Virus record (IMG/VR): IMGVR_UViG_3300006841_000093
Location: 32,001-96,000 of that record
DNA from: a virus
Length of the DNA: 64,000 bases
Reading direction: 5' to 3' (one strand)
Shown: piece by piece, positions 12,129-25,270 of the stretch
How positions within the stretch are numbered: the stretch's first letter is position 1
Layout of the letters: each line of letters opens with the position of its first letter
Notes under the pieces: generated by a model
Database searches by the model: none
Told to the model about the DNA's origin: nothing
Seen by the model: the letters and a program-made list of their open reading frames with translations, nothing else
Position numbers and translations under genes: made by a program

Positions 12129-12152
12129 CAAATCAAAAATATATGTTATAAT
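12125..12152 (+). promoter_or_regulatory. Sigma70-like promoter for gp45/gp44
   Basis: TTGACA-N16-TATAAT with TG extension. Confidence 0.65.
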
Positions 12153-12191: not shown

Positions 12192-12851
12192 ATGAAACTT
12201 ACAGCAGAAACAGTCGCGATACTTAAAAATTACGCAGCAATAAATCAAAACATACAGTTTAAGGAAGGTAAGACATTATCAACCATTTCCCCCCAAAAAA
12301 ATATTTTATCAAGTGCAGAAATTAGTGAAGAGATTTCACAAACATTTGCTATCTATGATCTTAATAGATTATTAGCGGCAATGAGTGCTTATGATAAAAT
12401 TCCAGAATTAATACTTGAAGAGAATCGATTGTTAATTAATGGTCAAACAAAATATACTTATGGTGATCCGGCCATGTTAGTATTACCTCCAGAGAAAAAA
12501 CTTGATTTTCCGGAGCCGGAGATACAATTTAAAATGCCAAAAGATAAGTATGATATGTGTTTGAAAATGGCATCGATTTTACAAGTTCCAGAATTAGTTG
12601 TACAAGGAGATGGAAGTAAAATATTTTTAGTTGCAACTGATACTAATAATTCTTCAGCAGATCAACATCCAGAAGAAGTTGGAACTACAGATAAACAATT
12701 TCAGATGGTTTTCAAGATTGAAAATATGAAACTTTTAAGTGGAAATTATGAAGTTGGAATCTCTTCTAAAGGTATTTCACATTTTTCACATGAACATTCT
12801 AAATTACAATATTGGATAGCAACAGAACAAAATTCAACGTTTAATGGATAA
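12192..12851 (+). CDS. gp45: Sliding clamp
   Basis: MKLTAETVAILKNYAAINQNI, FAIYDLN and FKIENMKLL; immediately before gp44. Confidence 0.9.
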   Translation: MKLTAETVAILKNYAAINQNIQFKEGKTLSTISPQKNILSSAEISEEISQTFAIYDLNRLLAAMSAYDKIPELILEENRLLINGQTKYTYGDPAMLVLPPEKKLDFPEPEIQFKMPKDKYDMCLKMASILQVPELVVQGDGSKIFLVATDTNNSSADQHPEEVGTTDKQFQMVFKIENMKLLSGNYEVGISSKGISHFSHEHSKLQYWIATEQNSTFNG

Positions 12852-12853
12852 AC

Positions 12854-13792
12854 ATGGAAAACTTTTTATGGGTCGAAGAATTCCGTCCTAAGACTGTAGC
12901 GGATTGTATTCTTATAGAACCAACTAAAGAAGTCTTTCAAGGTTTCGTTGATGATGGTAAAATTCCTAATTTACTTTTATCTGGCGGAGCGGGAGTAGGT
13001 AAAACTACTGTTGCTCGTGCTATGTGTGATGAAATTGGTGTAGACCATTTAATGATCAACGGATCTAATGAGGGAAGAAATATAGATACAGTAAGAACTA
13101 CTTTACAACAATACTGTAGTTCAGTTTCCATGTCAGGTGGAAGAAAAGTAGTAATAGTCGATGAGGCAGATTATATGAATGCTGATTCGGTACAACCTGC
13201 ATTAAGGGGGTTCATTGAAAAATTTAGTGCCAATGTTAGTTTTATCTTTACTTGTAATTTCCGTAATCGGATTATTGATCCTATCCATAGTCGTTGCTCT
13301 GTAGTAGAATTTATTACTCCAAGATCAGAGAAACCAAAACTCGCTCAAGAGTGTTTAGTTAGGGTTAAAGAAATTCTAACACAAAAAGGAATTAAGTTTG
13401 AAGAAAAAGTACTTGCAGAATTAGTTTTGAAACATTTTCCAGATATGAGGAGAGTGATAAATGAACTTCAAAGATATGCAGCGGGTGGAATTATTGATGC
13501 CGGTATCTTAGCACAGATTGGTGAAATCAATCTTCTTGAACTGATGAAGGCGTTGAAGGAAAAACATTTTTCAGAAGTTCGTAAATGGGTTACACAAAAT
13601 ATCGATAATGATCCAGTAAAGATTTTTAGAAAGATTTATGATGGTGTACATGAACATCTCAAAGATACTTCAATTCCACAAGCTGTTCTTGTTATTGCAG
13701 AATATCAATATAAATCTGCGTTTGTTGCAGATCAAGAAATTAACTTAGTTGCCTGTCTCACAGAGATGATGGTTGATTGCGAGTTTAAATGA
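12854..13792 (+). CDS. gp44: Clamp loader large subunit
   Basis: LWVEEFRP, GGAGVGKTT, DEAD, SRC and FPDMRR. Confidence 0.95.
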   Translation: MENFLWVEEFRPKTVADCILIEPTKEVFQGFVDDGKIPNLLLSGGAGVGKTTVARAMCDEIGVDHLMINGSNEGRNIDTVRTTLQQYCSSVSMSGGRKVVIVDEADYMNADSVQPALRGFIEKFSANVSFIFTCNFRNRIIDPIHSRCSVVEFITPRSEKPKLAQECLVRVKEILTQKGIKFEEKVLAELVLKHFPDMRRVINELQRYAAGGIIDAGILAQIGEINLLELMKALKEKHFSEVRKWVTQNIDNDPVKIFRKIYDGVHEHLKDTSIPQAVLVIAEYQYKSAFVADQEINLVACLTEMMVDCEFK

Positions 13793-15237
13793 ACGAAGAA
13801 CTATTAAAAATATATGAAGATAATACAAATGAATATGGATTGCCGGTATTCGATTTATTTACTTGGCAAAATATAAATACAAAATATATTGATCCTGATA
13901 CTTCTTTGCCTATGTCTAAACGGGCTAAAGTCATGATCGATACTATGATACATTTCTTTGAAAAACACAAACCTAAATTTCCATTTAGAGATTTTGATGA
14001 GCACGATGTTAGACAAAACTTTTATACTTTATGTAATCTCAATCTAAAAGATAATATCTTCCCTAAAGAAAAATGTAAAACTGTACATGAAAAATACGAT
14101 GACTATGTAGGAAATTTTCCAGAATGGGGAATGGGTATTTTAAATTTTAGTTCAAATTATAATAATATTTCAGATATGTTCATGAATCGTGAACGAATGA
14201 AATGTAGTTATGATCGTTCACCTAGCCCAATTACTATGTGGAATGATCAAACAGATTTAAAACAAATTCTTTCTCCAATATGGAGACTTCATCCTGATTG
14301 TGGAATGCCACTCAAGAATAATTTATATATTGAGGGTGTTAGAGTCGGAGCATATTTTGCTACTCAGTTTAAACCTTCAGTAGCAAAAGCCTTTTATGAT
14401 TTTACTAAGTCTAAAAAAGTTCTTGACACAAGTTCAGGATGGGGTGATCGAATGGCAGGATTCTTTGCATCAAATGCCGAAGAATATTATGGTATGGACC
14501 CGAATGGTGATCTACATCAAAACTATCACTCAATGGCCGTACAATATAATAATTGGTTAGGTGCAGAGAATCCCCAAACTACAACTGGAGATAATTGGTT
14601 TCAAGTTGAAGGTAAAAAGAAAGTAAAAATTTATAGATCACCGGCAGAGGATTTGCCGTGGGATGAAATTCCAGATGATATTGATATCATGTTTAGTTCA
14701 CCTCCGTATTTTGCTACTGAAAAATATGCAGAAGGAAGCAAGTTCGAAAATGATCAATCATGGAGTCGTTATAATTCTTATGAAGCATGGAGAGATGGGT
14801 TTTATCTTCCAGTAATGAAAAAAGCATTTGAGAAATTATCTCCCGGTGGATGGTTAATGGTGAATATCATGGACCCAAAAGTTAAAGGTAAAAGACATAA
14901 ATCTTGTGATGATTTGGTAAATGATCTTAAAGAATATTTTGTAGGTCAAATTGGAATGAGAATTATGGCTAGACCTAAAAGTATTAAATCTTTTGAGGGA
15001 GATACCCATGAAGAAAGAAAAGCAAAATATGATGAATGGCAAGCAAAATGGTTTATTGAATCAGTTTGGTGTTTTAGAAAGCCTGATCCTAGTAATAATA
15101 ATGTTGATATCTTTGCTCCTTATAAAGATTCTACTTTGGATGGCATGGGGCCAATCGTTGTTCAACAACCTATTAAAAAGAAAAAGTTATCAGAAGCAAC
15201 AACTGAGAAATCTTCATTAGAGGGGTTTTTTGATTAA
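13789..15237 (+). CDS. DNA amino-methyltransferase
   Basis: ATQFKP, DTSSGWGDRM and FSSPPYF; ends SSLEGFFD; paralog of 4531 and 17107. Confidence 0.8.
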   Translation: MNEELLKIYEDNTNEYGLPVFDLFTWQNINTKYIDPDTSLPMSKRAKVMIDTMIHFFEKHKPKFPFRDFDEHDVRQNFYTLCNLNLKDNIFPKEKCKTVHEKYDDYVGNFPEWGMGILNFSSNYNNISDMFMNRERMKCSYDRSPSPITMWNDQTDLKQILSPIWRLHPDCGMPLKNNLYIEGVRVGAYFATQFKPSVAKAFYDFTKSKKVLDTSSGWGDRMAGFFASNAEEYYGMDPNGDLHQNYHSMAVQYNNWLGAENPQTTTGDNWFQVEGKKKVKIYRSPAEDLPWDEIPDDIDIMFSSPPYFATEKYAEGSKFENDQSWSRYNSYEAWRDGFYLPVMKKAFEKLSPGGWLMVNIMDPKVKGKRHKSCDDLVNDLKEYFVGQIGMRIMARPKSIKSFEGDTHEERKAKYDEWQAKWFIESVWCFRKPDPSNNNVDIFAPYKDSTLDGMGPIVVQQPIKKKKLSEATTEKSSLEGFFD

Positions 15238-16036
15238 TGAAATCACACCATTAGAACAGTATAAAATAAAAGATAAAACTGTTCATGTAAAACGTGATGA
15301 TCTCATGGGAGATGGAGTTGAACATCCACCGTGGGGTAAACTGACTGCTCTACGTAAGGTGTTAGAGACTATTAATCCTCAAAAACCATTAATACATCTT
15401 TCTGTTTATGGGTCTTGGTCTGGATGGGCACTCTCTGAAGTGTCAAAAGAATTAGATTATGAATTTATTATGGCCTATCCTGACTCTAAGAAATTCCCAA
15501 AACATATTTTAGACAAATCAGAAAATGTTCTTCCTATTAAACCTAATATGATGAACGTGATGTATAATAAAGTGGGACAGATAGCAAGAGAAAAAGATTA
15601 CATTAGATTACCATATGCGTTTGATCATCTAGAGTATATTAAAACACAAAAAGCTAGACTATACGAAGTTAAACAAGAATTAGAGTTTGATCATTTAGTA
15701 GTTTCTTCTGGATCGGGAGTTACTTGTCTTGGAATGGTGATGGAACATGAACCGTGGCCACAATTATTTGATACAGGAAATACAAGAACTTTTCATACTG
15801 TATGTGTATCAAGTGAAGGAACTATTAAAAAGAAATTTAAAAAATATGGTATCGAACCAACAGAACAAGTTGAAATAGTCAAGAGTAAATTTGCATTTGA
15901 TGATATGATGGATTCGTATGAAACTCCATTTCCTTGTAATGAATTTTGGGATAAGAAGGCTTGGTATTGGTTAGAACAAAACATTGACAAATTTAAAGGT
16001 GAAATTTTATTTTGGAATCTGGGAGGTAACTGGTGA
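15230..16036 (+). CDS. PLP-dependent fold-type II enzyme (ACC deaminase/D-Cys desulfhydrase-like)
   Basis: HVKRDDL...GKL (Schiff-base Lys), SSGSGVT phosphate loop and FWNLGG. Confidence 0.7.
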   Translation: MINEITPLEQYKIKDKTVHVKRDDLMGDGVEHPPWGKLTALRKVLETINPQKPLIHLSVYGSWSGWALSEVSKELDYEFIMAYPDSKKFPKHILDKSENVLPIKPNMMNVMYNKVGQIAREKDYIRLPYAFDHLEYIKTQKARLYEVKQELEFDHLVVSSGSGVTCLGMVMEHEPWPQLFDTGNTRTFHTVCVSSEGTIKKKFKKYGIEPTEQVEIVKSKFAFDDMMDSYETPFPCNEFWDKKAWYWLEQNIDKFKGEILFWNLGGNW

Positions 16037-16245
16037 AAAAATTAGATGAAGATGTAATTAGAGTTTGTGGATGGGTATGTTCTTTGTTATGTGTATTAAT
16101 AGGATCATATTTTGTTTGGCCACACATTCATGTAGCACTATTAGGAATTGCATTTTTTTACTTTGCAGTGAGAATTTTCAATTTCTCCACTTTTAAAGAA
16201 TACGCAGAAGATCGTAAAAAACTTTTACATAGATTACAGGGGTAA
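16033..16245 (+). CDS. Small two-TM membrane protein
   Basis: Two hydrophobic segments; overlapping GTGA start. Confidence 0.5.
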   Translation: MKKLDEDVIRVCGWVCSLLCVLIGSYFVWPHIHVALLGIAFFYFAVRIFNFSTFKEYAEDRKKLLHRLQG

Positions 16246-16247
16246 CT

Positions 16248-17126
16248 GTGAGTAGAGTTGTATTAAAAGACAAAAAAGATATGAATGAAATCCATCAATT
16301 TGGTGATCACTTCAAAACGTGGGATGAAGTTACAGATAATGGAATGGAGTGGGAAGATTATAAAATCATGGGCTCACAAGATGAAATTGAACGTGATCTT
16401 GAAACACAAGTATTGAGTGTTAAGTTTTCCAAGATAGGACAAAAAACATTTGATGCATATCCAAATCTAAAATGGATTCAATGTAGAGCACACGGATCGG
16501 ATAATATCAATTTAGAATTAGCTGAAGCTCGTAGAGTGGGAGTTGTTTGTTTAGATCCAGATACAGAAAATGTTGCAAATTGGATTAACCGATGGAAAAG
16601 GGGTAAACGAATTTTATTATTAGGTGCAGGTAAAATTGGTAAGATGTTAGCTCTTGGTTTAGATCATGAAGTAACAGAAGTGACTTCCCAAACTGATTAT
16701 AATACAATTTATCCATACATGGACACGTTTGATACAATAATCGTTGCTTCATCACCTACATCTCAACCAATCGTAGATCACGCATTGTTAGAAAAATTTA
16801 ATGGAAGTATTATTTCTATATCAAGACCGGCGTGTATAGATAATGAGGCATTACTTGAAGCGGCGAAGGATGGTAGAATAACACATGCTCAAATGGATAT
16901 GTTAGATCCTAAAGGAAGAGAAGAATTAATAGAAACAGGAAAAGTAAAGTATCATAAACACACTGCATGGGAAGCACAAGGACTAAGCCAATATGATATG
17001 AGATATTTTGCTATGGTGTTTCAAGAAATACAATGGTTATTAGTGGATAAACCAACGTATGAACCGCCCATACGAAATAGTAGAATTGTTTTAGAACGAA
17101 AAGGTAATGCATTGTTTGGAGACTAA
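16248..17126 (+). CDS. D-2-hydroxyacid dehydrogenase-like protein
   Basis: CRAHGSDNI, Rossmann LLGAGKIG, SISRPACID and His in KYHKHTAW. Confidence 0.7.
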   Translation: MSRVVLKDKKDMNEIHQFGDHFKTWDEVTDNGMEWEDYKIMGSQDEIERDLETQVLSVKFSKIGQKTFDAYPNLKWIQCRAHGSDNINLELAEARRVGVVCLDPDTENVANWINRWKRGKRILLLGAGKIGKMLALGLDHEVTEVTSQTDYNTIYPYMDTFDTIIVASSPTSQPIVDHALLEKFNGSIISISRPACIDNEALLEAAKDGRITHAQMDMLDPKGREELIETGKVKYHKHTAWEAQGLSQYDMRYFAMVFQEIQWLLVDKPTYEPPIRNSRIVLERKGNALFGD

Positions 17127-18051
17127 CGAATTTCCTTATTATCCTACAGATGATGTTTGGAGGAGAGAAGAATTTTCTAAATTTATTCAGTATCAAGGAA
17201 ACTTATTGGATAATAAAATAATAAAACAGACTATGCATGGTCTAGCACTTTCGTGGTCTTATATGCCACACGCCTTTGATGTTAAATGTGGTAATATGAA
17301 TACACCTTTACAAACTTTTCTTAATGACAAAGAAAAGATCAAAAAGAAGATGGAGCAACTTGGTCATGTTGATTCGCCTTCAGGTTTGAGAAAAGCATTA
17401 AAGGTTATGTCAGGCTCACAAGGAGTTAGTAATTTTAGACCTACTGCGGCTCAAGCAATATATGAAAAGTTTTTACCAAATGGTGGAACTACATGGGATA
17501 TGTCTGGAGGTTATGGTGGAAGATTATTGGGAGCAATAAAAACTCAAATAAATTATATTGCTACTGAACCGGCGAAAGAAACGTTTGATGGATTGACTCA
17601 GATCGCAAAGGATTGGGGTCAACAATCAAACCTTTTTGGAATAAAACAACGTTTAGAAATAGTTCAGAGTGGAAGTGAAGATTATGTTCCAGAGGAAGAT
17701 TCATTAGATTTGTGTTTCACTTCACCGCCCTATTTTGATACAGAAAAATATTCTAATGAAGATACTCAAAGTTATAAAAAGTTTCCAAAGAAAGTAGATT
17801 GGTTAGAAGGTTTTTTACGAAAGACAATTCAAAACTGTCACCGAGGCTTAAAGAAAAATCGTTATTTAATTATCAATATAGCTAATGTTAGCTCATTTGA
17901 TACATTAGAAGATGAAACTGGAAATATAGTTTTGTCTGAAGGATTTGAATACTTAGATACATTTCAACTTTCTCTGTCAAAGATGCCAGGAAAGAATATT
18001 GCAAATGATGTATTCAAATATGAACCCGTATTTCTTTTCAGAAAGAAATGA
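17107..18051 (+). CDS. DNA amino-methyltransferase
   Basis: SNFRPTAA, DMSGGYGGRLLG and FTSPPYF. Confidence 0.8.
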   Translation: MHCLETNEFPYYPTDDVWRREEFSKFIQYQGNLLDNKIIKQTMHGLALSWSYMPHAFDVKCGNMNTPLQTFLNDKEKIKKKMEQLGHVDSPSGLRKALKVMSGSQGVSNFRPTAAQAIYEKFLPNGGTTWDMSGGYGGRLLGAIKTQINYIATEPAKETFDGLTQIAKDWGQQSNLFGIKQRLEIVQSGSEDYVPEEDSLDLCFTSPPYFDTEKYSNEDTQSYKKFPKKVDWLEGFLRKTIQNCHRGLKKNRYLIINIANVSSFDTLEDETGNIVLSEGFEYLDTFQLSLSKMPGKNIANDVFKYEPVFLFRKK

Positions 18052-18069
18052 AATTCGGATATAGTACAC

Positions 18070-18097
18070 TTGACAAATTAAAAAGTCATGATATACT
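18070..18097 (+). promoter_or_regulatory. Sigma70-like promoter
   Basis: TTGACA-N16-TATACT with TG extension. Confidence 0.55.
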
Positions 18098-18194
18098 ATA
18101 TAATAGTAGATAACAATATGGTTTTGTTATCAAGTAAGTTGTTATACCTTAAACGTGGTGGACGCAACTCTAAATAACTTTTTTGGAGATAGTA

Positions 18195-19229
18195 ATGGAA
18201 AATTACACAAATGGCAGTAGACTGCTACAAAATAAGACTGTACCTATTACAGTTATAGCTGAAAGATTAAATCTCTCACCTAAAAGAAAATCGTTCAATA
18301 AAAACGATTACCTACCAATAACTTACCTCAAAGCAAGTCAACTTAAAGTAGCCACAGATATTCAGAGAATAGTCATAATCTCGATGATTAAAGGGGCTAA
18401 AGTTTTTAATGGTAAATTAGCAAGACCTTTATATGTCTTTAAAAGACCAAATGGTGATTATGTTGTAACAGATGGACAACATACTGCAATTATTGCAATT
18501 TTGTATACTGAGGAACGTGGTGATGTTATATTGCCTTGTCAAATAGATATACATCCCTCACATTATACCATTGAAGAATGTGAAGCGGCGGAAGCCCAAA
18601 AGTTTAGGGAGTTAAACAGTAAACGTAGACAAGCTGGTAAAGTAGATAGACTTAGGGCAGATATTGCAGAAGGACTTGAAGAGGCCTTACAGACTTTATC
18701 AGACCTAGTAGATATGGGTGTCCATGTTGAAAGACTTGGAAACGAAGATGGGCCTGAAGTTCATGGTTATTCTAAGTTAATGGAGGCACATAAAGCCTAT
18801 GGACTTAAAAGTGTTTGTTTAGCAATCGAACTATATCAAAAACTTCAAAACGATTCCAAATTTAGGAAGTGGAATAATATTGAAAAACCCCTTAATGGTG
18901 GTTTAATTGGTGGACTGGCAGCAGTTTACTATTTTATCAGAGAATATCTTGGAGAAGGTGATAAAAGGTTCGCTCTTGAAACTTTTTTAGATGATTATCT
19001 GGGTAAATTCAAACCAAAAGATTTGTTAGAGGGTACAGCAGGTGTTTCACAAGCTGTTCTTATTGCCCGAAAAATTATTATTAGTTGCAATACCCAAATA
19101 GATCTAGAACATATAACAAAGAAAAATGGTAATGTTCTAGAAGTAAATATTGGAGAAGAACTTTTGTCTCAAGCTGGATTGGGTGATCCTAGTAAAATGA
19201 AAAGGGAATTGACCAACTCCAGAACCTGA
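18195..19229 (+). CDS. ParB/Srx-like domain protein
   Basis: ATG at 18195 after GGAG; DIQR and YVVTDGQHT (DGQHR-like) motifs. Confidence 0.55.
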   Translation: MENYTNGSRLLQNKTVPITVIAERLNLSPKRKSFNKNDYLPITYLKASQLKVATDIQRIVIISMIKGAKVFNGKLARPLYVFKRPNGDYVVTDGQHTAIIAILYTEERGDVILPCQIDIHPSHYTIEECEAAEAQKFRELNSKRRQAGKVDRLRADIAEGLEEALQTLSDLVDMGVHVERLGNEDGPEVHGYSKLMEAHKAYGLKSVCLAIELYQKLQNDSKFRKWNNIEKPLNGGLIGGLAAVYYFIREYLGEGDKRFALETFLDDYLGKFKPKDLLEGTAGVSQAVLIARKIIISCNTQIDLEHITKKNGNVLEVNIGEELLSQAGLGDPSKMKRELTNSRT

Positions 19230-19238
19230 AAATATTAA

Positions 19239-20675
19239 ATGTGTGGATTCGTAGCTGGAAATATTTTTAAAGATACAAAACACTTTCATGCCGCGTTGAG
19301 TCTTATTGATCATCGCGGTAGAGATTATAAAGGTGTTAATTATTGTATTAAAACAAATACTTACTTAGGTCATAATAGACTTTCTATTCAGGGGTTGACT
19401 GAGGAATCTAATCAACCTATGATTAAAGATAATTATACATTAGTTTATAATGGTGAATTATGGCACAGTATGAATCCACATAAAGAAAAATTCAATTTAC
19501 AGACTAGTAGTGATACAGAGTTGTTACTCAATATGTTTCACTTAGACCAACAAGATTGTATCAAAACACTTGATGGTATGTTTGGGTTTGCGGTCTTGGA
19601 TAATAAAAGAAATTACTTGACCTTTGCTAGAGATTTTATGGGTAGAATTCCCTTGTACTTTTTCAAGAGAGGTAAAGAAATTATCGTAGCAAGTGAACTA
19701 AAAGCAATTACAAACTCATTGAACATTAATGCTTCTGATGTAGTATTAGCAGATCCAGGTTGTTACTATCAATTTGATTATGTAACAGGAGAATTGACAA
19801 AGAGAACATATTATGAATTTCCTGCAATGGATGATATTGAAGATATGTCAGAAGAAGAAGTGATGGATGGTATACGTAATTTATTAACTGAAGGTGTACA
19901 TAATGAGTTAATAAGTGATGTACCTGTTTGTACAATTTTGTCAGGCGGAGTAGATTCTACTGTCGTTACATATCTACTCAAACAAAAAATTCCAGATCTA
20001 CAAGCATTTGTAGTGAGTATGGGTGATACTGGAAAGAAAGATGATTTGTACTATGCAAGAATGGCGGCTAAAGAAATTGGTGTTCCACTCCATGAAGTTA
20101 TTATTGATGAGGAGTGGGTAGAACAAAATTTAACTGAAGCAGTCTATGCAGTCGAAGATTTTAGTTGGACACAAGTTTCTCCGGCGGTTGCTCAATTAGC
20201 ACTTTCCAAAAGAATTCATGATGAAGGGTTTAAGGTCGTCTTTGGTGGAGAAGGTAGTGATGAATTGTTTGCTTCCTATGGACATGTATTTGCGTGGAAC
20301 TATGAAGATAAAGATTACATCAAAGAACGATATAAGCTGGTAGTAAATCTCCACAAAAACAATTTAATACGAACCAACAAAGCAATGATGTATGGTGGAA
20401 CAGTAGAATTAAGAACACCATTTCTTCACAAAGATTTGGTCGAATTTTGTTTGAGAATTCCCCCGAAGTATAAGCAAACAGCCGATAGAGTGTGGAAACC
20501 AATGTTAAGAAAAGCTTTTTCTGGCAAACTTTCAGATGAATTATTATTCAGACCAAAAAAGACTTTTCAAGATGGTTGTCACACTATCTACCTCAAGAAT
20601 CATAAGGAAAGAATTAAAGAAACGTATTTGACGCATTATGGTCAAAAAAATCCATTAGAGAGTTTTTTCGGATGA
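19239..20675 (+). CDS. asnB: AsnB-family glutamine amidotransferase / ATP pyrophosphatase
   Basis: Cys1 Ntn domain (MCGF, HRGRD, GHNRLSI, NGE, SDTE), SGGVDS PP-loop, GEGSDELF and RTPFL; ends NPLESFFG. Confidence 0.85.
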   Translation: MCGFVAGNIFKDTKHFHAALSLIDHRGRDYKGVNYCIKTNTYLGHNRLSIQGLTEESNQPMIKDNYTLVYNGELWHSMNPHKEKFNLQTSSDTELLLNMFHLDQQDCIKTLDGMFGFAVLDNKRNYLTFARDFMGRIPLYFFKRGKEIIVASELKAITNSLNINASDVVLADPGCYYQFDYVTGELTKRTYYEFPAMDDIEDMSEEEVMDGIRNLLTEGVHNELISDVPVCTILSGGVDSTVVTYLLKQKIPDLQAFVVSMGDTGKKDDLYYARMAAKEIGVPLHEVIIDEEWVEQNLTEAVYAVEDFSWTQVSPAVAQLALSKRIHDEGFKVVFGGEGSDELFASYGHVFAWNYEDKDYIKERYKLVVNLHKNNLIRTNKAMMYGGTVELRTPFLHKDLVEFCLRIPPKYKQTADRVWKPMLRKAFSGKLSDELLFRPKKTFQDGCHTIYLKNHKERIKETYLTHYGQKNPLESFFG

Positions 20676-21772
20676 AATTATATAATGAAGATTGCATGAA
20701 ACAAATGCAAGAGATGATTGATGATGGAATTCAAGTTGATTCTGTTGTTACAGATCCCCCATACGGTATTCATTTTATGGGTAAGGATTGGGATAAATTT
20801 AAAGGTACTAAAGTTACCAAGAGTCAAGTAGTTACAAATTTGGGAGCAGGAATGAGAATGACTACTCACAAAGAAAATATGGATTTTCAGAAATGGTGTA
20901 ACGAATGGGCAATTTTGTGTTTAGAGTTATTAAAGCCAGGTGGTTATATTTTAGCATTTAGTTCTTCAAGGACTTATCATCATTTGGCTTGTGGTATTGA
21001 ATCAGCAGGATTTGAAGTACGAGATCAACTTATGTGGTTGTATGGTTCAGGATTTCCAAAGAGTATGAATATCGGAAAAGGTTGGGGAACTGCACTCAAA
21101 CCAGCACACGAACCTGTTGTTATGGCGAGGAAACCAGTTGAAGGAACTGTCGCAGATAATGTTTTGAAACATGGAACAGGTGGTATCAATATTGATGATT
21201 GTAGAATAGATTTATCTGAAGGTGATGATCCAAGATTGGGCGGTAAAGGAACTTGGAAAACTGATAAGATGGCAAAAGATGTTTATGTTGGTGGATATGC
21301 AGGAGAAGATCAAGGATCAAGTGAGTTGGGTAGATTTCCAGCAAATGTGATGCACGATGGTTTAGAACAAGAGTGGGCACGATTCTTCTATTGTCCAAAA
21401 GTTTCTAGAAATGAAAGGAACGGGGGATTGGAAAATATGGAAGAAAAGATACACAATACAGAAGATTGTACTAATTTACCATCTATAAGAACTAATAGTG
21501 TAAATACTTCTAGTGGGAAACAAAGAACAGTCAATCCTACCAAAAATAATCATCCAACAGTCAAACCGATTGAGTTGATGAAATACCTTTGTCGCCTTGT
21601 AACTCCAAAAGGTGGAATTGTTCTTGATCCATTTATGGGTTCAGGTTCTACTGGAATGGCTGCGAAGGATGAAGGATTTGATTTTGTGGGAATTGAACGG
21701 GAGAAGGAATATTTTGAGATTGCAGAAGCACGTATCAATGCTTCTTCACCTTTATTGGATTTTTTTGAATAA
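20672..21772 (+). CDS. Beta-class DNA methyltransferase
   Basis: TDPPY, GSGFPK, HPTVKP and DPFMGSGST; ends SPLLDFFE. Confidence 0.9.
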   Translation: MKLYNEDCMKQMQEMIDDGIQVDSVVTDPPYGIHFMGKDWDKFKGTKVTKSQVVTNLGAGMRMTTHKENMDFQKWCNEWAILCLELLKPGGYILAFSSSRTYHHLACGIESAGFEVRDQLMWLYGSGFPKSMNIGKGWGTALKPAHEPVVMARKPVEGTVADNVLKHGTGGINIDDCRIDLSEGDDPRLGGKGTWKTDKMAKDVYVGGYAGEDQGSSELGRFPANVMHDGLEQEWARFFYCPKVSRNERNGGLENMEEKIHNTEDCTNLPSIRTNSVNTSSGKQRTVNPTKNNHPTVKPIELMKYLCRLVTPKGGIVLDPFMGSGSTGMAAKDEGFDFVGIEREKEYFEIAEARINASSPLLDFFE

Positions 21773-21822
21773 ACACTTGACTTTTTCATCAAAACCGTGG
21801 TATAATATAACTGAACAATGAG
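21770..21822 (+). promoter_or_regulatory. Conserved phage early promoter cassette, copy 3
   Basis: TAAACACTTGACT-N18-TATAAT-ATAACTGAACAATGAG. Confidence 0.75.
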
Positions 21823-21833
21823 TAATAACCTTA

Positions 21834-22103
21834 ATGAGAGAGAATATGTTTGAGTTCAGAGCGGGTAGAAAACGAGTCGTAAAAACAGTTGAAACTGTAG
21901 ATGAAGCTAACAAATTGATGAGAGCAATGATTGCGATTCGCAATAACGATTCCCTTTGGGAAAATATTAATGTGAAAACTGGACATCTCCGTGCAGTTGA
22001 TGAATTGGAAAAGTTAGTCGGCACTATCTTTGATGTGTTTGATACTATGTCCATTTATGTAAATGGTAAATCTGTAAGGAAAATTTGGGCGAGGGGTTTC
22101 TAA
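21834..22103 (+). CDS. Hypothetical early protein (start may be 21846)
   Basis: First ORF after the conserved promoter. Confidence 0.55.
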   Translation: MRENMFEFRAGRKRVVKTVETVDEANKLMRAMIAIRNNDSLWENINVKTGHLRAVDELEKLVGTIFDVFDTMSIYVNGKSVRKIWARGF

Positions 22104-22654
22104 TGAGAGACTTTAGTATTGTAGAAACTGCTTCTAGGGCAGAAATGAAAGAAATTTTATTTTATGTTTTGAAGTGGTTTAAGAAAAAAACACTTGGTAA
22201 TCCATTTAATTATAATCGAGCATTTGAGTGGTTACAGGCTGAAATTCTTGGTTTTGAATTAGAGAAAGTAGGTGGTGGTTCTGATGGAAAAGATAAAGAT
22301 GGTGTAACAGCGGAGTTTAAAGCTTCTGCTTGGAAAGGTCTTGGCGCGAAGGGTCAAGAATTGACAAACTCTTTTACATACAATGGAACAAGTCGATATG
22401 AAGATTGGAATGAACAAGAAGATTATTGTCTGAAAAAGATTTTTCGTGATCCTTTTCATTTTTGGTCTATCATCAATTATGAGGAAGGGAAATTCGTAAA
22501 AACATTTAAAGTTCCTGCAGAAACAGTTTGTAATTTACTTATGCCTAAATGGACAAATAGTTGGAAAAATCCTAGTAAAAAAGATCCGAGAATAGGTGGT
22601 TCAGTTTCAACTAAAGATTTAGCAGGAGAAAATTTTGAAATCATCAATCACTAA
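22103..22654 (+). CDS. Putative PD-(D/E)xK restriction-endonuclease-like protein
   Basis: GSDGKDKDGVTAEFKAS fits D-x(n)-E-x-K; overlaps a methyltransferase gene. ORF track start is 22085; 22103 is the TAATG-coupled ATG. Confidence 0.5.
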   Translation: MRDFSIVETASRAEMKEILFYVLKWFKKKTLGNPFNYNRAFEWLQAEILGFELEKVGGGSDGKDKDGVTAEFKASAWKGLGAKGQELTNSFTYNGTSRYEDWNEQEDYCLKKIFRDPFHFWSIINYEEGKFVKTFKVPAETVCNLLMPKWTNSWKNPSKKDPRIGGSVSTKDLAGENFEIINH

Positions 22655-23363
22655 ACAAACAGATTTAGAATTACTTTCTACGATTAAAAATAATTCTGTT
22701 GATCTGGTTCTTACAGATCCACCGTATATTATCTCTAGAAAATCTGGGATGCAATCCTATAAAAATAGTTTAGAGAAGGGTGGAAAGGTAGATGAAAAAT
22801 TTGGAAAGAAATATGCTATAACTACTGAATTTGGTGAGTGGGATAATTCTTACACTATAGATGATTTAGAAAAAGCGATAAATGAATTTTATAGAATACT
22901 AAAATCTGGTGGTTCATGTATTATATTTTTTGATATATGGAAAATAGAAACTCTGTCAAAGTTGTTAAGTAAATTTTCCAAACATAGATTTATTGAATGG
23001 GTTAAATCAAATCCAATGCCAGTCAATCAATATGCAACATATCTATCAAATGCAAGAGAGATAGCTATTAGTTGTGTAAAAGGTGGTAAGGCAACATTTA
23101 ACAGTAAATATGATAATGGAATTTATGATTATCCAATATATGGCGGAAAAGATAGATTTCATCCTACTCAAAAATCTTTACCGATGTTTGAGGAATTAAT
23201 TAAAAAACATTCTAATGAAGGAGATACAGTAGTTGATCCTTATGCCGGAAGTGGTACTACTGCGGTAGCCGCTATAAACACAAATAGAAATTATTTGTGC
23301 TGTGAACCCTCTGATGAATATTTTGAGAAGGGGAAAAAAAGATGTGAAGATGCAAAAGCATAA
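22635..23363 (+). CDS. Beta-class DNA methyltransferase
   Basis: LTDPPY, FHPTQK and DPYAGSGTT. Confidence 0.9.
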   Translation: MKSSITKQTDLELLSTIKNNSVDLVLTDPPYIISRKSGMQSYKNSLEKGGKVDEKFGKKYAITTEFGEWDNSYTIDDLEKAINEFYRILKSGGSCIIFFDIWKIETLSKLLSKFSKHRFIEWVKSNPMPVNQYATYLSNAREIAISCVKGGKATFNSKYDNGIYDYPIYGGKDRFHPTQKSLPMFEELIKKHSNEGDTVVDPYAGSGTTAVAAINTNRNYLCCEPSDEYFEKGKKRCEDAKA

Positions 23364-23371
23364 ATAATTTT

Positions 23372-24472
23372 ATGGAATTACAGCAGTTTAAAGAAGTTAG
23401 TCAATTATTCATGGATTATGATGGAGAAGTTCAGATTAATCCATTTGCAAAGGTTCATTGGGGTACTGTTCAAGAGAATCACCTCAATGGAAAACTGTTT
23501 GTTGACAATGATAAAAACTATGGTATAATAGGTAGTGAGGCTAAAACAAGTAGAGAAGTAAAAGATTTTTCTAATCAAGTTGTTGGTCAAATTAAAGTAG
23601 GAGATATCTGTATCAAGAGATTTTTCTACAAAGAAGGATATAGAGAAAATGTAGTAAATCATATTTCGAAAATGAGAGAATCAACATTCGGAGATCGTGA
23701 TTTATGGTTTACTCATATTAATATGGAACATGAAGGAGATAAAGCGGTTGCTAAAGAATTTAATGCAACTTGGTTATCTTCAAGAATAGACGCGGTAGCA
23801 GCAGAAGTTAGAGGAGTATATTATTCTGGAGAACAAAAACAAATAGGATTAGGAAAACATGAAAATATTCCTTGTTGTAGATTAGATTATCCATATATTG
23901 AAGGATTAGATGAATTTTCAGAAGAATTAGATGAATACGTGAAAGATGGATGGGGAATAGCAGATCATCAAAAATCTTATGGTGGTAAAGATAAAACGTG
24001 GACATCTATCGAAATAATACCATTAATAGTTACTTATGGTACTAAAAAAGCAAAACAAGGTCTTAGGGGCGATTTAAACGAAGAATATATTAAGAGATTT
24101 CCTATTATTGAGAATATTATCAATCAGATAACCACTTTTGATGACTGTTTGTGGTTAGCAGTTGCTAAAGTATCTCCAAAAGGTGGTAATATATCAAGAC
24201 ATAGTGATAAAGGTATCGACAAAATGAATGCCGGAATACAGATTGGTAAAACGGCAAGAATACATTATGTGATGAAATCTAATCCTGAAACATATTTTCA
24301 ATTACAAGACCTTCAGGGAAAGACTCATAAATATTCTATGAAACAAGGTGAATATTGGTATATGGATAAGAGAAAACCCCACTCCGTATACAATAAAGGT
24401 GATACATTTAGGTATCACATGATTTTTGATATGAAAGTAACACAAGATTTATGGGACCATTTGATTTTATAA
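23372..24472 (+). CDS. Fusion of an N-terminal GNAT-like domain and a C-terminal Asp/Asn beta-hydroxylase-like 2OG-Fe(II) domain
   Basis: C-terminal ISRHSD...RIH...GEYWYMDKRKPHSVYN...RYHMIFD; N-terminal beta/alpha pattern like acetyltransferases (weaker). Confidence 0.6.
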   Translation: MELQQFKEVSQLFMDYDGEVQINPFAKVHWGTVQENHLNGKLFVDNDKNYGIIGSEAKTSREVKDFSNQVVGQIKVGDICIKRFFYKEGYRENVVNHISKMRESTFGDRDLWFTHINMEHEGDKAVAKEFNATWLSSRIDAVAAEVRGVYYSGEQKQIGLGKHENIPCCRLDYPYIEGLDEFSEELDEYVKDGWGIADHQKSYGGKDKTWTSIEIIPLIVTYGTKKAKQGLRGDLNEEYIKRFPIIENIINQITTFDDCLWLAVAKVSPKGGNISRHSDKGIDKMNAGIQIGKTARIHYVMKSNPETYFQLQDLQGKTHKYSMKQGEYWYMDKRKPHSVYNKGDTFRYHMIFDMKVTQDLWDHLIL

Positions 24473-24855
24473 AAGCAATCAATACACATAAAAATATCAT
24501 GAAAGATGGTGATCCATTGGCTGAAAAGGATTATGTACCTTTTCTTGTTAATCGTGGTTTATCGTTTTTTCAAGATACTGTTATACAAGTCAATGAAATG
24601 AATAGGTTACATTTTATTGACCACAAGCTCCAATTCGATTATTTGCTAAATAACATTAGACCAAGAAAGAGATGGTCTAAGTGGTTGAAACCAGACAAAA
24701 TTGATAATCTAGAACTAGTCAAAGAGTATTTTGGTTTCGGTAATGAAAAAGCAAAGGATGCTCTTGAAATCCTTTCTAGTGAGGATATCGAAGAGATTAA
24801 GAGAAAACTTGCAAAAGGTGGAATGGAGAAAAATAATGACAGTAAACATAGATGA
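24451..24855 (+). CDS. gp62: Clamp loader small subunit
   Basis: PFDFIKAIN, YVPFLVNRGLS, NEMN, QFDYLLNNIRPRKR and KEYFG..NEKA. Confidence 0.9.
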   Translation: MGPFDFIKAINTHKNIMKDGDPLAEKDYVPFLVNRGLSFFQDTVIQVNEMNRLHFIDHKLQFDYLLNNIRPRKRWSKWLKPDKIDNLELVKEYFGFGNEKAKDALEILSSEDIEEIKRKLAKGGMEKNNDSKHR

Positions 24856-25270
24856 GATGGTGGAATGTACATTAACAGAACCTGATGATTTTTTAAAAAT
24901 TAGAGAGACATTGACTAGAATTGGAGTAGCATCCAGAAAAGATAAAACTCTGTATCAATCATGTCATATATTACATAAACAAGGAAGATATTTTATTGTA
25001 CACTTTAAAGAATTATTTGCACTTGATGGTAAACCAACCAATTTTTCAGAAAATGATCAAGCGAGAAGAAACACAATAGCAAACTTATTAGCAGAATGGG
25101 GATTAATTAAATTAGTAAATCCTGATCAATCTTCTGCATTAGTTGTCCCGTTAAATCAATTAAAAATTCTAGCATATAAAGAAAAAGATGAATGGGCATT
25201 AACCGCAAAATACAATATTGGAAGTAAGAAAGTAAATTATGAGTACGGCGAAGAAGAAGGTGGTAACTAA
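24836..25270 (+). CDS. regA: Translational repressor RegA
   Basis: PDDFLKIRETLTRIGVAS, LYQSCHILHKQGRYFIVHFKELF; ATG at 24836. Confidence 0.95.
   Translation: MTVNIDEMVECTLTEPDDFLKIRETLTRIGVASRKDKTLYQSCHILHKQGRYFIVHFKELFALDGKPTNFSENDQARRNTIANLLAEWGLIKLVNPDQSSALVVPLNQLKILAYKEKDEWALTAKYNIGSKKVNYEYGEEEGGN

Follow-up and report, generated by a model that had tools for sequence, protein, structure and literature searches.

Why does an uncultured marine T4-like phage carry a block of modification-type genes between its clamp-loader genes gp44 and gp62? We analysed a window of 64,000 nucleotides from its genome (134.5 kb, 100% complete according to CheckV), for which the original prediction had proposed a single multi-step base hypermodification pathway of 11 genes, co-expressed with the replisome. 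The most likely answer, judging from sequence comparison, is that a conserved set of enzymes builds an undescribed chemical decoration on the bases of the phage DNA. We consider it probable (roughly 0.6) that the island is composite and that its core is a post-replicative DNA base hypermodification pathway working at the replication fork. We favour hypermodification because the PLP enzyme and AsnB are related to enzymes with a known or predicted action on modified DNA bases and because the core genes repeatedly co-occur in divergent phages; the replication fork is suggested by the polymerase-like tails of MTL0, MTL1, AsnB and MT3.

The insertion itself was confirmed. Pfam matches identified gp45, gp44, gp62, regA and dUTPase, and thereby the borders of the island. 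The gap between gp44 and gp62 (13789-24472) contains 12 ORFs, one more than first counted, all on the + strand and mostly overlapping. Eight start/stop overlaps (at 13789, 15230, 16033, 17107, 20672, 22085, 22635 and 24451) bear out the translational coupling that had been noticed for many of the genes. In 12 of the 18 loci of more distant relatives having both genes, gp44 and gp62 are separated by about 200 nt at most, indicating that the insertion is real and clade-specific. ThyX and dUTPase were both found, as anticipated. The lack of hmU/hmC synthase and DpdA, initially noted for the window, extends to the whole complete 134.5-kb genome, where no homologs of PF00303, PF00145 or PF01702 and no TS-like hydroxymethylase, 5-HMUDK, aGPT-Pplase, CmoA or C5-MTase were detected.

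Features of the island and its surroundings (positions in the window)
Feature	Position	Strand	Evidence and remarks
MTL0, third SPPY MTase-like paralog	4531..5715	+	Outside island; clamp-type tail SPLSKFFQ
Promoter, perfect sigma70-like, extended -10	12125-12152		Upstream of gp45
gp45 sliding clamp	12192..12851	+	PF09116 gp45-slide_C, E 2.6e-9; presumed docking platform
gp44 clamp-loader large subunit	12854..13792	+	PF21328 Gp44_lid E 1.4e-17 + AAA; left island border
MTL1, SPPY MTase-like, core	13789..15237	+	PF01555, N-terminal part only
PLP enzyme, phage M6 gp52 family, core	15230..16036	+	phrog_7093 E 4e-21, full length
70-aa hydrophobic TM ORF	16033..16245	+	On 212-nt insert specific to window
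D-isomer-specific 2-hydroxyacid dehydrogenase (2HADH), core	16248..17126	+	PF02826 + PF00389
MTL2, shorter SPPY MTase-like paralog	17107..18051	+	phrog_12517, weak PF01555; no tail
Promoter, strong sigma70-like, extended -10	18070..18097	+	11/12 matches + TG; precedes ParB-like gene
ParB-like / DUF6551 protein, accessory	18183..19229	+	phrog_2558 E 5e-57; weak phrog_1033, DUF6551
AsnB-type glutamine-dependent amidotransferase, core	19239..20675	+	PF00733 E 1.7e-52 + GATase
MT3, canonical beta-class N6/N4 DNA methyltransferase, accessory	20672..21772	+	PF01555 E 7e-38, full length
Promoter, strong sigma70-like	21777..21806	+	11/12 matches + TG; precedes 89-aa ORF/nuclease/MT4 cassette
89-aa ORF	21834..22103	+	tblastn 80-95% identity in L004, L006, L008-L011
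189-aa PvuII-like endonuclease candidate, accessory	22085..22654	+	phrog_35715
MT4, canonical beta-class N6/N4 MTase	22635..23363	+	PF01555 E 4e-33; no tail
GNAT (1-157) fused to 2OG/Fe(II) hydroxylase (160-362)	23372..24472	+	PF05118 E 2.5e-10
gp62 clamp-loader small subunit	24451..24855	+	PF16790 E 2.2e-13; right island border
regA	about 24857-25270		Pfam
dUTPase	25239-25823		Pfam
gp43 DNA polymerase	28205..30679	+	PF00136 + PF03104
ThyX	60866-61696		

The island is composite, made of a conserved core, frequent members and promoter-bounded accessories. Only MTL1, the PLP enzyme, 2HADH and AsnB were kept in every informative close relative, so that the idea of a single 11-gene pathway did not stand; MTL2 and the GNAT/2OG fusion are frequent, yet present in only some relatives. 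Gene-neighbourhood analysis in IMG/VR, the check suggested with the original prediction, revealed the order gp44-MTL1-PLP-2HADH-AsnB-...-gp62 wherever the contig covers it in all 17 close relatives found with AsnB, and, with the same proviso on coverage, in further relatives found with MTL1 or PLP. The minimal island, in loci L005, L016/L111 and L109, consists of exactly these four genes. Homologs of the PLP enzyme at 45-75% identity were found at 64 loci with at least seven architectures. Of these, 26 are well flanked, with 5 kb or more to either side; 24 of them have an MTL paralog, and all 26 have AsnB, a glutaminase-less ligase or the dehydrogenase. Even where identity falls to 33-50%, the PLP, MTL, AsnB or ligase, dehydrogenase and 2OG genes are found together, arranged in several different orders; in architecture D the module adjoins pol and gp44, placing it in replisome clusters of unrelated arrangement too. 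Independent assortment of the non-methyltransferase genes, which would have counted against the original prediction, was not seen: these genes travel together with MTL paralogs in divergent phages. Homology and gene neighbourhood support the proposed multi-step, replisome-coexpressed hypermodification, with a chemistry other than that of the hmU/hmC and deazaguanine pathways.

The ParB-like gene, MT3 and the nuclease/MT4 pair form separate add-on cassettes bounded by promoters. The ParB-like gene and MT3 were found in the window and in L004 only, the former at 47% identity. The match to ParB is weak (phrog_1033 E 7e-4, DUF6551 E 0.024); an S-RIM2 homolog adjoins a Dam-type MTase, and we read the product as an activator-type protein. 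Four DNA methyltransferases had been announced. MT3 and MT4 are indeed canonical N6_N4 enzymes (both PADLOC MTase_II, MT4 with E 3e-43), and the remaining two, MTL1 and MTL2, are divergent paralogs of the SPPY type. MT3, which ends in the clamp-type tail SPLLDFFE, is read as a clamp-tethered ordinary methylase. The nuclease call comes from a structural lead in the ESM Atlas, where the 189-aa ORF matches PF09225 clusters of PvuII-type endonucleases (TM 0.71, feature score 0.94); MT4 is its probable partner, and the two probably resemble a Type II restriction-modification pair. The 70-aa ORF probably lies outside the pathway: none of the relatives has it, their PLP stop directly adjoining the dehydrogenase start, and its 212-nt insert is bounded by GG(A/G)GGTAACTG repeats.

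Catalytic residues are intact in all core enzymes. MTL1 has an additional N-terminal domain of about 200 aa and the clamp-type tail SSLEGFFD, and its position was conserved in all close relatives covering the site. MTL1 and MTL2 match just the first third of PF01555, with motif I (GWGDR) and motif IV (FTSPPYF) invariant in MTL alignment A1, which includes MTL2. The PLP enzyme, with K37 invariant, was related to M6 gp52 by tblastn (E 4.5e-20) and by hhalign (probability 99.8, E 1.2e-28, 261 columns), the Schiff-base Lys and the C-terminal signature of the family being aligned. It has no NCBIfam match, the family profile has no PDB match, and a pattern-seeded scan of a genome collection of 185,579 species did not find the PLP/gp52 family. 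M6 gp52 and ViI gp226 are decarboxylases of amino-acid:nucleobase conjugates on DNA (PMC8989533). The dehydrogenase conserves R193, D217, H238 and G126xG128, and its C-terminal N(A/S)LFGD is retained even at 49% identity. In AsnB, C2, the PP-loop S235GGxDS and E338/D341 are conserved. The predicted structure confirmed the GNAT/2OG-oxygenase fusion (AF2 model, pLDDT 84). Through this model the 2OG part matches proline hydroxylases (Z 15.4 and 15.1) and AspH (Z 14.4), and residues 1-157 match GNATs (Z 10.5-12.1). H277xD279, H337/H349 and R347 are invariant. As modelled, a GNAT joined to an amino-acid-type 2OG hydroxylase fold would fit the tailoring of an amino-acid-like moiety.

Several island enzymes seem to travel with the replication sliding clamp. 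The motif [STP]L..FF.?$ ends five of 213 ORFs, namely gp43, MTL0, MTL1, AsnB and MT3 (by shuffling, 0.0145 expected and a maximum of 2 in 2000). The C-terminus of gp43, a polymerase 51% identical to cyanomyovirus gp43, is SSLDNFFI and served as the reference clamp-binding tail. The AsnB tail, NPLESFFG, was kept in 16 of the 16 close relatives reaching the C-terminus, and tails of the pattern [ST]L[DE]xF[FLWM] recur on MTL proteins in the majority of some 80 loci at 40% identity. Residues 449-482 of MTL1, including the tail, are disordered in its AF2 model (pLDDT 88), like the linker of T4 clamp-binding epitopes (PMC2988020). Complex prediction for the gp45 trimer with AsnB residues 434-478 gave 0.47 versus 0.00 for the best of three controls, with runs agreeing in at least 55% of contacts and a partner pLDDT of at least 40. 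The prediction tool rates this as weak support. The pass mark was reached by 51/78 solved complexes and 2/108 mismatched pairs, and passes at or below 0.60 comprised only 5/78 solved complexes and every one of the 4 passing mismatches (of 180). An RB69 clamp-peptide complex has been solved, so that the pass may reflect memory.

We propose that the tails would dock the enzymes on gp45, so that nascent DNA would be modified as it emerges. An SPPY MTase-fold enzyme would use SAM to place a group on the exocyclic amino of A, C or G; this group would carry, or become, an amino-acid-like side chain tailored by the other enzymes. An alpha-amino acid would be the substrate of the PLP enzyme and a 2-oxo/2-hydroxy acid that of the dehydrogenase; AsnB would make a carboxamide from a carboxylate, with N-acylation and hydroxylation contributed by the GNAT/2OG fusion. 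A decarboxylation of the gp52 type would strip the carboxylate needed by AsnB, which counts against the scheme; the order and nature of its steps are accordingly tentative.

It is unlikely that the MTL paralogs, MT3 and MT4 make only m6A, m4C or m2G while the PLP enzyme, dehydrogenase, AsnB and GNAT/2OG fusion use free host amino and keto acids and are co-located incidentally, for example as a threonine/serine dehydratase followed by 2-oxoacid reduction, or for asparagine supply. A PLP dehydratase of fold type II feeding a 2-hydroxyacid dehydrogenase would make sense as a free-metabolite pair, some loci (architecture C) do have 2HADH-PLP pairs with no MTL nearby, and AsnB, with all glutaminase and PP-loop residues kept, scores 284 against the 267-bit cut-off of NCBIfam TIGR01536 (genuine glutamine-hydrolysing asparagine synthase). 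Furthermore, most members of the MTL family (about 40% identity) are solitary, with no PLP, AsnB or 2HADH gene within 10 kb; its members may thus simply be ordinary methyltransferases, in which case the tailoring enzymes would be without an obvious handle. However, the PLP enzyme groups with M6 gp52 rather than with cellular dehydratases and lacks the NCBIfam and PDB matches mentioned above, the AsnB tail is of polymerase type, and MTL accompanies nearly all well-flanked PLP loci. The phage also already has a separate AsnRS-like, asparagine-synthetase-A-type gene, and the nearest phage relative of AsnB, Streptomyces phage TurkishDelight gp124 (AsnB-like, 33% identity over 93% of the length, E 3e-61), is housed in a DNA-modification cluster.

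This cluster, in which gp124 neighbours two ParB genes, a C5-MTase and a CmoA-like MTase gene, has the CmoA/CmoX-type carboxymethylcytosine architecture, and the AsnB-like ligases associated with such clusters are proposed to amidate 5-carboxymethylcytosine (PMC12783734). With carboxy-SAM from host CmoA, MTL1 might thus carboxymethylate an exocyclic amine that AsnB would amidate to an N-carbamoylmethyl base, a Mom-like product made by CmoX/CmoY-like logic on N rather than C5. The ParB-like gene of the island is in keeping with this route, ParB-like genes being companions of CmoA/CmoX clusters, but we judge it very unlikely. The complete genome has neither a CmoA homolog nor a C5-MTase, neither carboxymethyl nor carbamoylmethyl provides the PLP enzyme with a primary amine or the dehydrogenase with a 2-oxo/2-hydroxy acid, and candidate N6-A or N4-C carboxymethyltransferases were not found by the authors (PMC12783734). 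Highly improbable, in our opinion, is a substrate other than DNA, such as tRNA/rRNA, the nucleotide pool or a replisome protein, with the tails binding another partner. The weakness of the docking prediction leaves room for it, RNA and protein supply the best aminocarboxypropyl precedents, and the closest solved folds to the MTL1 model are the tRNA/rRNA amino-methyltransferases TrmN, Trm11, Trm1, RsmC and METTL5, matches that do not separate methyl from aminocarboxypropyl or carboxymethyl transfer. Nevertheless, the tails match that of the phage's own gp43 and one ends the canonical DNA methylase MT3; in several lineages the genes are part of the clamp-loader operon or adjoin pol, and the PLP/AsnB relatives with known or proposed substrates target DNA.

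Hypermodification of the phage DNA itself thus remains the preferred reading. Its chemistry may differ between variants, since a divergent thymidylate-synthase-like gene is present in many related modules and absent from the present genome. Tyw2 transfers a 3-amino-3-carboxypropyl group from SAM in wybutosine synthesis. By analogy, our tentative guess, possible rather than probable, is that the transferred group may be 3-amino-3-carboxypropyl; later tailoring would then resemble the hydroxylation by Tyw5 and the amidation by Dph6.

The window (bases 32001-96000 of its source record) lies in a 134.5 kb virus genome, 100% complete by CheckV, of a T4-like myovirus with about 33% G+C. Its polymerase gp43 shares only 51% identity with those of cyanomyoviruses, and no close cultured relative was found, megablast against isolated phages giving only a 180-nt patch in gp44. 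Pfam searches recognised gp45, gp44 and gp62, as well as regA and dUTPase, and set the borders of the island, the group of genes separating the clamp-loader genes gp44 and gp62. More distant relatives have 18 loci holding both gp44 and gp62, and in 12 of these the two genes are no more than about 200 nt apart, which confirms the insertion described by the original prediction; the interval contains 12 plus-strand ORFs instead of the 11 then counted, with overlapping start and stop codons in most cases. G+C content and skews of the island are the same as those of its flanks, indicating that it is not a recent foreign arrival.

Positions of the features discussed in the text (window coordinates; 2HADH, 2-hydroxyacid dehydrogenase; MTL, methyltransferase-like; MT, methyltransferase)
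Feature	Position	Strand	Basis
Adenine phosphoribosyltransferase	1398-1952		NF005592
Asn/Asp-tRNA-synthetase-like protein	2546-3433	-	
MTL0	4531-5715		
phrog_459 'peptidase'	6020-8320		
CbbQ/NirQ-type ATPase	8422-9636		AAA_5 + CbbQ_C
Promoter before gp45	12125		Predicted
gp45	12192-12851		Pfam
gp44	12854-13792		Pfam
MTL1	13789-15237	+	
PLP enzyme	15230-16036	+	
212-nt insert	16033-16245		
2HADH	16248-17126	+	
2HADH C-terminal peptide	17096-17126	+	
MTL2	17107-18051	+	
Promoter before ParB-like gene	18070		Predicted
ParB-like protein	18183-19229	+	
AsnB	19239-20675	+	
MT3	20672-21772	+	
Promoter before small-ORF/nuclease/MT4 cassette	21777		Predicted
Nuclease-like ORF	22085-22654	+	
MT4	22635-23363	+	
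GNAT/2OG protein	23372-24472	+	
Promoter inside GNAT/2OG gene	23502-23529		Predicted
gp62	24451-24855		Pfam

The original prediction listed four DNA methyltransferases in the island. This holds for MT3 and MT4, which are canonical beta-class N6/N4 methylases, and does not hold as such for MTL1 (482 aa) and MTL2 (314 aa), each of which matches just the first third of PF01555. Together with MTL0, encoded outside the island, they form one family in which motif I (GWGDR) and the following motif IV (FTSPPYF) are both invariant; none of the 1746 database matches of this family carries an informative functional name. The AlphaFold2 model of MTL1 (pLDDT 88, pTM 0.84) was closest, by VIA, to TrmN (Z 14.0, rmsd 2.7 A over 170 residues) and Trm11 (Z 13.8), with Trm1, METTL5, RlmKL and RsmC also matching (Z 13-14 for TrmN, Trm11, Trm1 and METTL5). 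These best structural relatives are exocyclic-amino methyltransferases of RNA; generic small-molecule O-methyltransferases match the model with equally high scores, and Trm5a, a Tyw2 relative, is one among many methyltransferase folds matching at Z of about 12. Foldseek with the same model returned only generic class I methyltransferases at low TM, and a single-sequence PDB search with MTL1 gave no match. The MTL proteins thus have the Rossmann fold, motif I and (D/N/S)PP(Y/F) motif IV of class I SAM-dependent exocyclic-amino methyltransferases, a combination of sequence and modelled fold that cannot separate methyl transfer from aminocarboxypropyl or carboxymethyl transfer. At about 40% identity, the majority of MTL1-type relatives are solitary genes near the replisome genes, and the family is therefore broader than the module described here. 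In a genome collection of 185,579 species, all MTL matches were MAG contigs assigned to many unrelated phyla, which suggests mis-binned phage DNA.

The PLP enzyme (268 aa) is a full-length member of phrog_7093 (E 4e-21, residues 1-265 of 268). It matched gp52 of phage M6 by tblastn (E 4.5e-20 over 1-277 of 278), and the profile of its family aligned with M6 gp52 from end to end (hhalign probability 99.8, E 1.2e-28, 261 columns). The Schiff-base lysine K36 of M6 gp52 is aligned with K37 of the window enzyme, which is invariant in 48 homologs, and the family-specific C-terminal signature of gp52 is aligned as well. Decarboxylation of amino acids attached to thymidine in DNA has been proven for both M6 gp52 and ViI gp226 (PMC8989533); at 25% identity to gp52, the window enzyme may differ in reaction type. 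Isolated phages gave 64 matches, all covering at least 80% of the protein, of which 52 belong to M6/YuA-like Pseudomonas phages and nine to Bordetella phages. No PDB chain was matched by the single sequence or the family profile, and a pattern-seeded scan of the collection of 185,579 species did not find the family. Between the PLP stop and the 2HADH start, the window carries a 212-nt insert that encodes a 70-aa hydrophobic ORF and is flanked by imperfect direct repeats GG(A/G)GGTAACTG; it is missing in all relatives, in which the PLP and 2HADH genes abut at this place.

AsnB (PF00733, E 1.7e-52) is complete: Cys2 nucleophile, PP-loop and glutaminase residues are all present, as are those residues that align with invariant positions of E. 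coli AsnB. It is about 75 residues shorter than the E. coli protein at the C-terminus, where it ends in a clamp-type tail. When curated cut-offs were applied, AsnB scored above that of TIGR01536 (284 bits, cut-off 267) and below that of PRK09431 asnB (287, cut-off 499). Its best match in an isolated phage is TurkishDelight gp124 (33% identity over 93%, E 3e-61), which sits between a C5-MTase and a CmoA-like MTase in a neighbourhood of ParB, ParB, C5-MTase, AsnB-like and CmoA-like MTase genes; similarity to S-B43 CmoY is only marginal (E 4e-4). The dehydrogenase, 2HADH, has both 2-Hacid_dh domains and conserves R193, D217 and H238. Its C-terminal peptide N(A/S)LFGD is kept at 49% identity (L013 and L014), and ELFGDK ends an unrelated 278-aa HD-phosphohydrolase-like protein (cluster c16) encoded next to PLP in another clade (L171 and similar loci). 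These endings may represent a second type of docking peptide.

The last island gene encodes a GNAT domain (residues 1-157; Z 10.5-12.1 to many acetyltransferases) followed by a 2OG/Fe hydroxylase, as had been predicted; the fusion was settled by the AF2 model and VIA, the ESM Atlas GNAT lead for the N-terminal half being below a useful score. The hydroxylase part is closest to proline hydroxylases acting on the free amino acid (Z 15.4 and 15.1), then to Asp/Asn beta-hydroxylase (Z 14.4), and its HxD...H triad is invariant. The 189-aa ORF upstream of MT4, which MT4 follows with an overlap, gave an ESM Atlas structural lead to PvuII-type endonucleases (PF09225 clusters, TM 0.71, feature score 0.94) and no Pfam or PADLOC match; with MT4 it would form a candidate Type II restriction-modification pair. 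PADLOC likewise gave no match for the ParB-like, GNAT/2OG or small ORFs. The ParB-like label of the original prediction could be retained on weak matches only (phrog_1033, E 7e-4; DUF6551, E 0.024). ParB-like proteins activate a phage DNA dioxygenase on double-stranded DNA (PMC13229309). Homologs of the ParB-like/DUF6551 protein, 36% identical, occur in 64 phage records, all of Synechococcus phages, those among the matches listed being all S-RIM2; in the one S-RIM2 record examined (L002, 40451-42369) a Dam-type (D12 class) methylase directly follows the homolog. Such gene order suggests a conserved pairing of ParB-like protein and methyltransferase, separate from the hypermodification core.

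Some genes outside the island were also considered. The minus strand, which has few genes, encodes a truncated class II Asn/Asp-tRNA-synthetase-like protein of 295 aa that consists of the catalytic core alone. This protein shares 54-56% identity with the 'tRNA ligase' of Prochlorococcus phages P-SSM2, P-SSM5 and P-SSM7, and may be of asparagine-synthetase-A type, which would give the phage two different 'asparagine synthetases'. As an amino-acid donor for the island enzymes it was set aside, because these three phages carry homologs and gave no match to MTL1, PLP or AsnB in the searches made. The adenine phosphoribosyltransferase (218 bits, cut-off 143) might, speculatively, salvage adenine from SAH or MTA under heavy SAM use. 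A CbbQ/NirQ-type AAA+ ATPase adjoins a 766-aa phrog_459 protein, and this pair is kept in relatives (clusters c21 and c20).

We then compared the island among related phages. Through AsnB, 17 close relatives were found at 83-97% identity, and more through MTL1 or PLP. The order gp44-MTL1-PLP-2HADH-AsnB-...-gp62 is kept in all close relatives where the contig covers it, and the smallest islands (L005, L016/L111 and L109) consist of exactly these four core genes. MTL2 and GNAT/2OG occur only in subsets of relatives, the ParB-like gene and MT3 only in the window and L004, and the full nuclease/MT4 cassette only in the window, the end of the L004 contig bearing the start of the nuclease gene; since the IMG/VR scans were pattern-seeded, absences in short contigs mean little. 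Near-perfect sigma70-type promoters with an extended -10 were predicted before the ParB-like gene and before the small-ORF/nuclease/MT4 cassette, and a third before gp45. Their positions fit with promoter-bounded add-on cassettes. Another predicted promoter of this type, a perfect 12/12 match that also has an extended -10, falls within the GNAT/2OG gene, some 950 nt before gp62, and may supply gp62 and regA with a separate transcript. In several relatives divergent alleles have replaced core genes while the neighbours stayed about 90% identical (PLP, 39% identical in L005; 2HADH, 49% in L013 and L014), and the ParB-like gene is also swapped (47% in L004), indicating that function is selected for at a given position.

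Scanning with a profile for PLP homologs added 64 loci (45-75% identity), which show at least seven architectures: (A) MTL-PLP-2HADH-AsnB(-2OG); (B) 2OG-PLP-c15-2HADH-MTL; (C) 2HADH-PLP; (D) Trx-TSlike-AsnB-PLP-MTL-pol-c13-MTL; (E) MTL-TSlike-AsnB-PLP-c16-c26; (F) Trx-TSlike-ligase-PLP-MTL, the ligase being without a glutaminase domain; and (G) gp44-MTL-TSlike-AsnB-PLP-gp62, c numbers designating protein clusters. The module is abundant among T4-like phages of marine and other aquatic habitats. The original prediction took independent assortment of the non-methyltransferase genes in relatives as evidence against a common pathway. No such assortment was found, because in the 26 PLP loci having at least 5 kb on either side, PLP is accompanied by an MTL paralog in 24 and by AsnB, a ligase or a dehydrogenase in all 26. 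A divergent 232-aa TS-like gene (PF00303, E 3.8e-6) lies directly upstream of AsnB or the ligase and PLP in L119, L120 and L143-L178, in the first two again between gp44 and gp62; it was never seen in the same locus as 2HADH. Compared with architectures D to F, the window module is TS-less, dehydrogenase-bearing and placed inside the clamp-loader operon, and has a full glutamine-dependent AsnB and clamp-type tails.

These tails were recognised from the C-termini of gp43 (SSLDNFFI), MTL0 (SPLSKFFQ), MTL1 (SSLEGFFD), AsnB (NPLESFFG) and MT3 (SPLLDFFE). The motif [STP]L..FF.?$ ends 5 of the 213 ORFs of the genome, for an expectation of 0.0145 and a maximum of 2 in 2000 trials in which the last 40 residues were shuffled. 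The AsnB tail is kept in all 16 close relatives whose sequence reaches the C-terminus. AsnBs at 66-71% identity end in SLE(K/E)FM, alongside polymerases ending in TLEDFF, and tails of the form [ST]L[DE]xF[FLWM] were found on the MTLs of most of about 80 loci at 40% identity. Tail and linker of MTL1 (residues 449-482) are disordered in the AF2 model, and the clamp-binding epitopes of gp43, gp55 and gp33 are likewise described as disordered in T4 (PMC2988020). When the gp45 trimer was modelled together with AsnB residues 434-478, the complex received a score of 0.47 (best of three controls, 0.00), which the tool grades as weak support. Of 78 solved complexes, 51 reach the mark, but only 5 do so at 0.60 or under; 2 of 108 mismatched pairs reach it, and the 4 mismatches that passed (of 180) were all at 0.60 or under. 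The runs agree in at least 55% of contacts, and the pLDDT of the partner is at least 40. The prediction may echo the solved RB69 clamp-peptide complex, remembered by the model. A full-text literature search found no report of base-modifying enzymes or of an amidotransferase with a clamp epitope.

We searched the complete genome for the entry enzymes of known modification pathways. There was no TS homolog with PF00303 at E <= 1, no match to S-B43 CmoA at E <= 1, no C5-MTase (PF00145) and no TGT/DpdA. The M6 TS homolog and the genes flanking M6 gp52, read by position alone as aGPT-Pplase, kinase and rSAM, gave only chance matches by tblastn at E <= 1. ThyX and dUTPase are kept. Since none of these genes was found, the entry chemistry must differ from every characterised route, as the original prediction had suggested it might.

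The best-supported reading is replication-coupled hypermodification. In this reading, nascent DNA would be the target of enzymes docked on gp45; a SPPY SAM-dependent transferase would set a handle on an exocyclic amine, and the remaining enzymes, typical of amino-acid or keto-acid side chains, would tailor it. The aminocarboxypropyl group of SAM is the only obvious source of a side chain, because the genome is without an amino-acid:DNA transferase; as the handle, it is a tentative and rather unlikely candidate, suggested by analogy. Spelled out, clamp-tethered SPPY enzymes would put the 3-amino-3-carboxypropyl group of SAM, not methyl, on the exocyclic amine of a DNA base, and PLP, 2HADH, AsnB and GNAT/2OG would convert it on the polymer to a hydroxy- or acyl-amide side chain. 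We give this proposal a probability of about 20%. It is weakened by the fact that gp52-type enzymes are decarboxylases, as decarboxylation would compete with amidation. The many MTLs without tailoring genes and the presence in related modules of a TS-like gene absent from this phage also count against it.

Less probably, carboxy-SAM could be provided by host CmoA, a route for which the AsnB-like ligases of CmoA/CmoX clusters speak; Yang et al. found no candidate N6-A or N4-C carboxymethyltransferases (PMC12783734). Plain methylation combined with auxiliary metabolism is another alternative, kept alive by the score of AsnB above the TIGR01536 cut-off; the tail on AsnB and the MTL paralogs found with PLP in 24 of 26 loci count against it. 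A substrate other than DNA is a further, unlikely alternative. In its favour, the closest folds to MTL1 are those of RNA enzymes; against it, the characterised PLP relatives act on DNA.

Under the reading of replication-coupled hypermodification, the module combines a gp52-like PLP enzyme, of a family for which on-DNA tailoring is shown, an AsnB-like ligase, for which it is proposed, and amino-directed SAM transferases. As known entry enzymes are missing while these tailoring families join amino-directed transferases, the gene content suggests a modified base not described before, probably a modification of A, C or G. The polymerase-type tails make it testable that the sliding clamp brings base-modifying enzymes, including an amidotransferase, to nascent DNA. 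If the aminocarboxypropyl proposal were true, this would be the first DNA base derived from that group, and its enzymes the first base-hypermodifying ones recruited as sliding-clamp clients. Phage DNA hypermodifications counter restriction and CRISPR systems and are a source of DNA-labelling enzymes. To our knowledge, all characterised routes begin from 5-hydroxymethyl-pyrimidines, 7-deazaguanine, Mom or, recently, 5-carboxymethylcytosine.

Aminocarboxypropyl pathways are known on RNA and protein, namely those of wybutosine (Tyw2, Tyw5) and diphthamide (Dph2, Dph5, Dph6). There, the amino-acid portion of SAM is transferred by an enzyme of methyltransferase fold and modified by a 2OG hydroxylase and by SAM methylases, and its carboxylate is amidated by an enzyme that depends on ATP. 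The analogy with the window is one of working principle only, and the substrate here would be DNA. With the thymidine hypermodification of M6 and ViI (Lee et al., NAR 2021/22, PMC8989533) the window has in common a member of the gp52/gp226 family and the idea that, after replication, PLP, acetyltransferase and redox enzymes reshape an amino-acid-like group carried by a DNA base. In contrast to M6 and ViI, it is without dUMP hydroxymethylase, 5-HMUDK kinase, aGPT-Pplase amino-acid:DNA transferase and radical-SAM isomerase, has SPPY methyltransferase-like proteins, AsnB and 2HADH instead, and its thymidine synthesis looks canonical (ThyX, dUTPase).

In the S-B43 CmoA-CmoX-CmoY system, CmoA makes carboxy-SAM, CmoX carboxymethylates C5 of cytosine, and the new carboxylate is then amidated by an asparagine-synthetase-family ligase, the primary-amide product of the glutaminase-bearing ligase cluster being a proposal only (Yang et al., Nat Commun 2025, PMC12783734). 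The likeness lies in an asparagine-synthetase-family enzyme acting, or proposed to act, on a DNA carboxylate installed by a SAM transferase, and in ParB-type genes nearby, ParBc genes being frequent neighbours of CmoA/CmoX clusters (PMC12783734); the TurkishDelight gp124 cluster has such an architecture. Unlike S-B43, the window has no CmoA and no C5-MTase, its transferases are SPPY amino-directed and not SPPC enzymes, and the PLP, dehydrogenase and GNAT/2OG genes are extra. Phage Mu Mom, whose product is N6-carbamoylmethyl-adenine, is likewise a GNAT-fold enzyme linked to an amide-bearing group on an exocyclic amine, and the window, compared by function, has a GNAT domain and an amide-forming enzyme; Mom acts alone, whereas in the window the GNAT domain is optional and joined to a 2OG hydroxylase (PMC7261163). 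Finally, the tails resemble those of the T4/RB69 'tool-belt' in being short hydrophobic/acidic C-terminal peptides after a variable flexible linker (PMC2988020). The T4/RB69 clamp clients gp43, gp55 and gp33 are replication and transcription proteins, whereas the clients predicted here are base-modifying enzymes and an amidotransferase.
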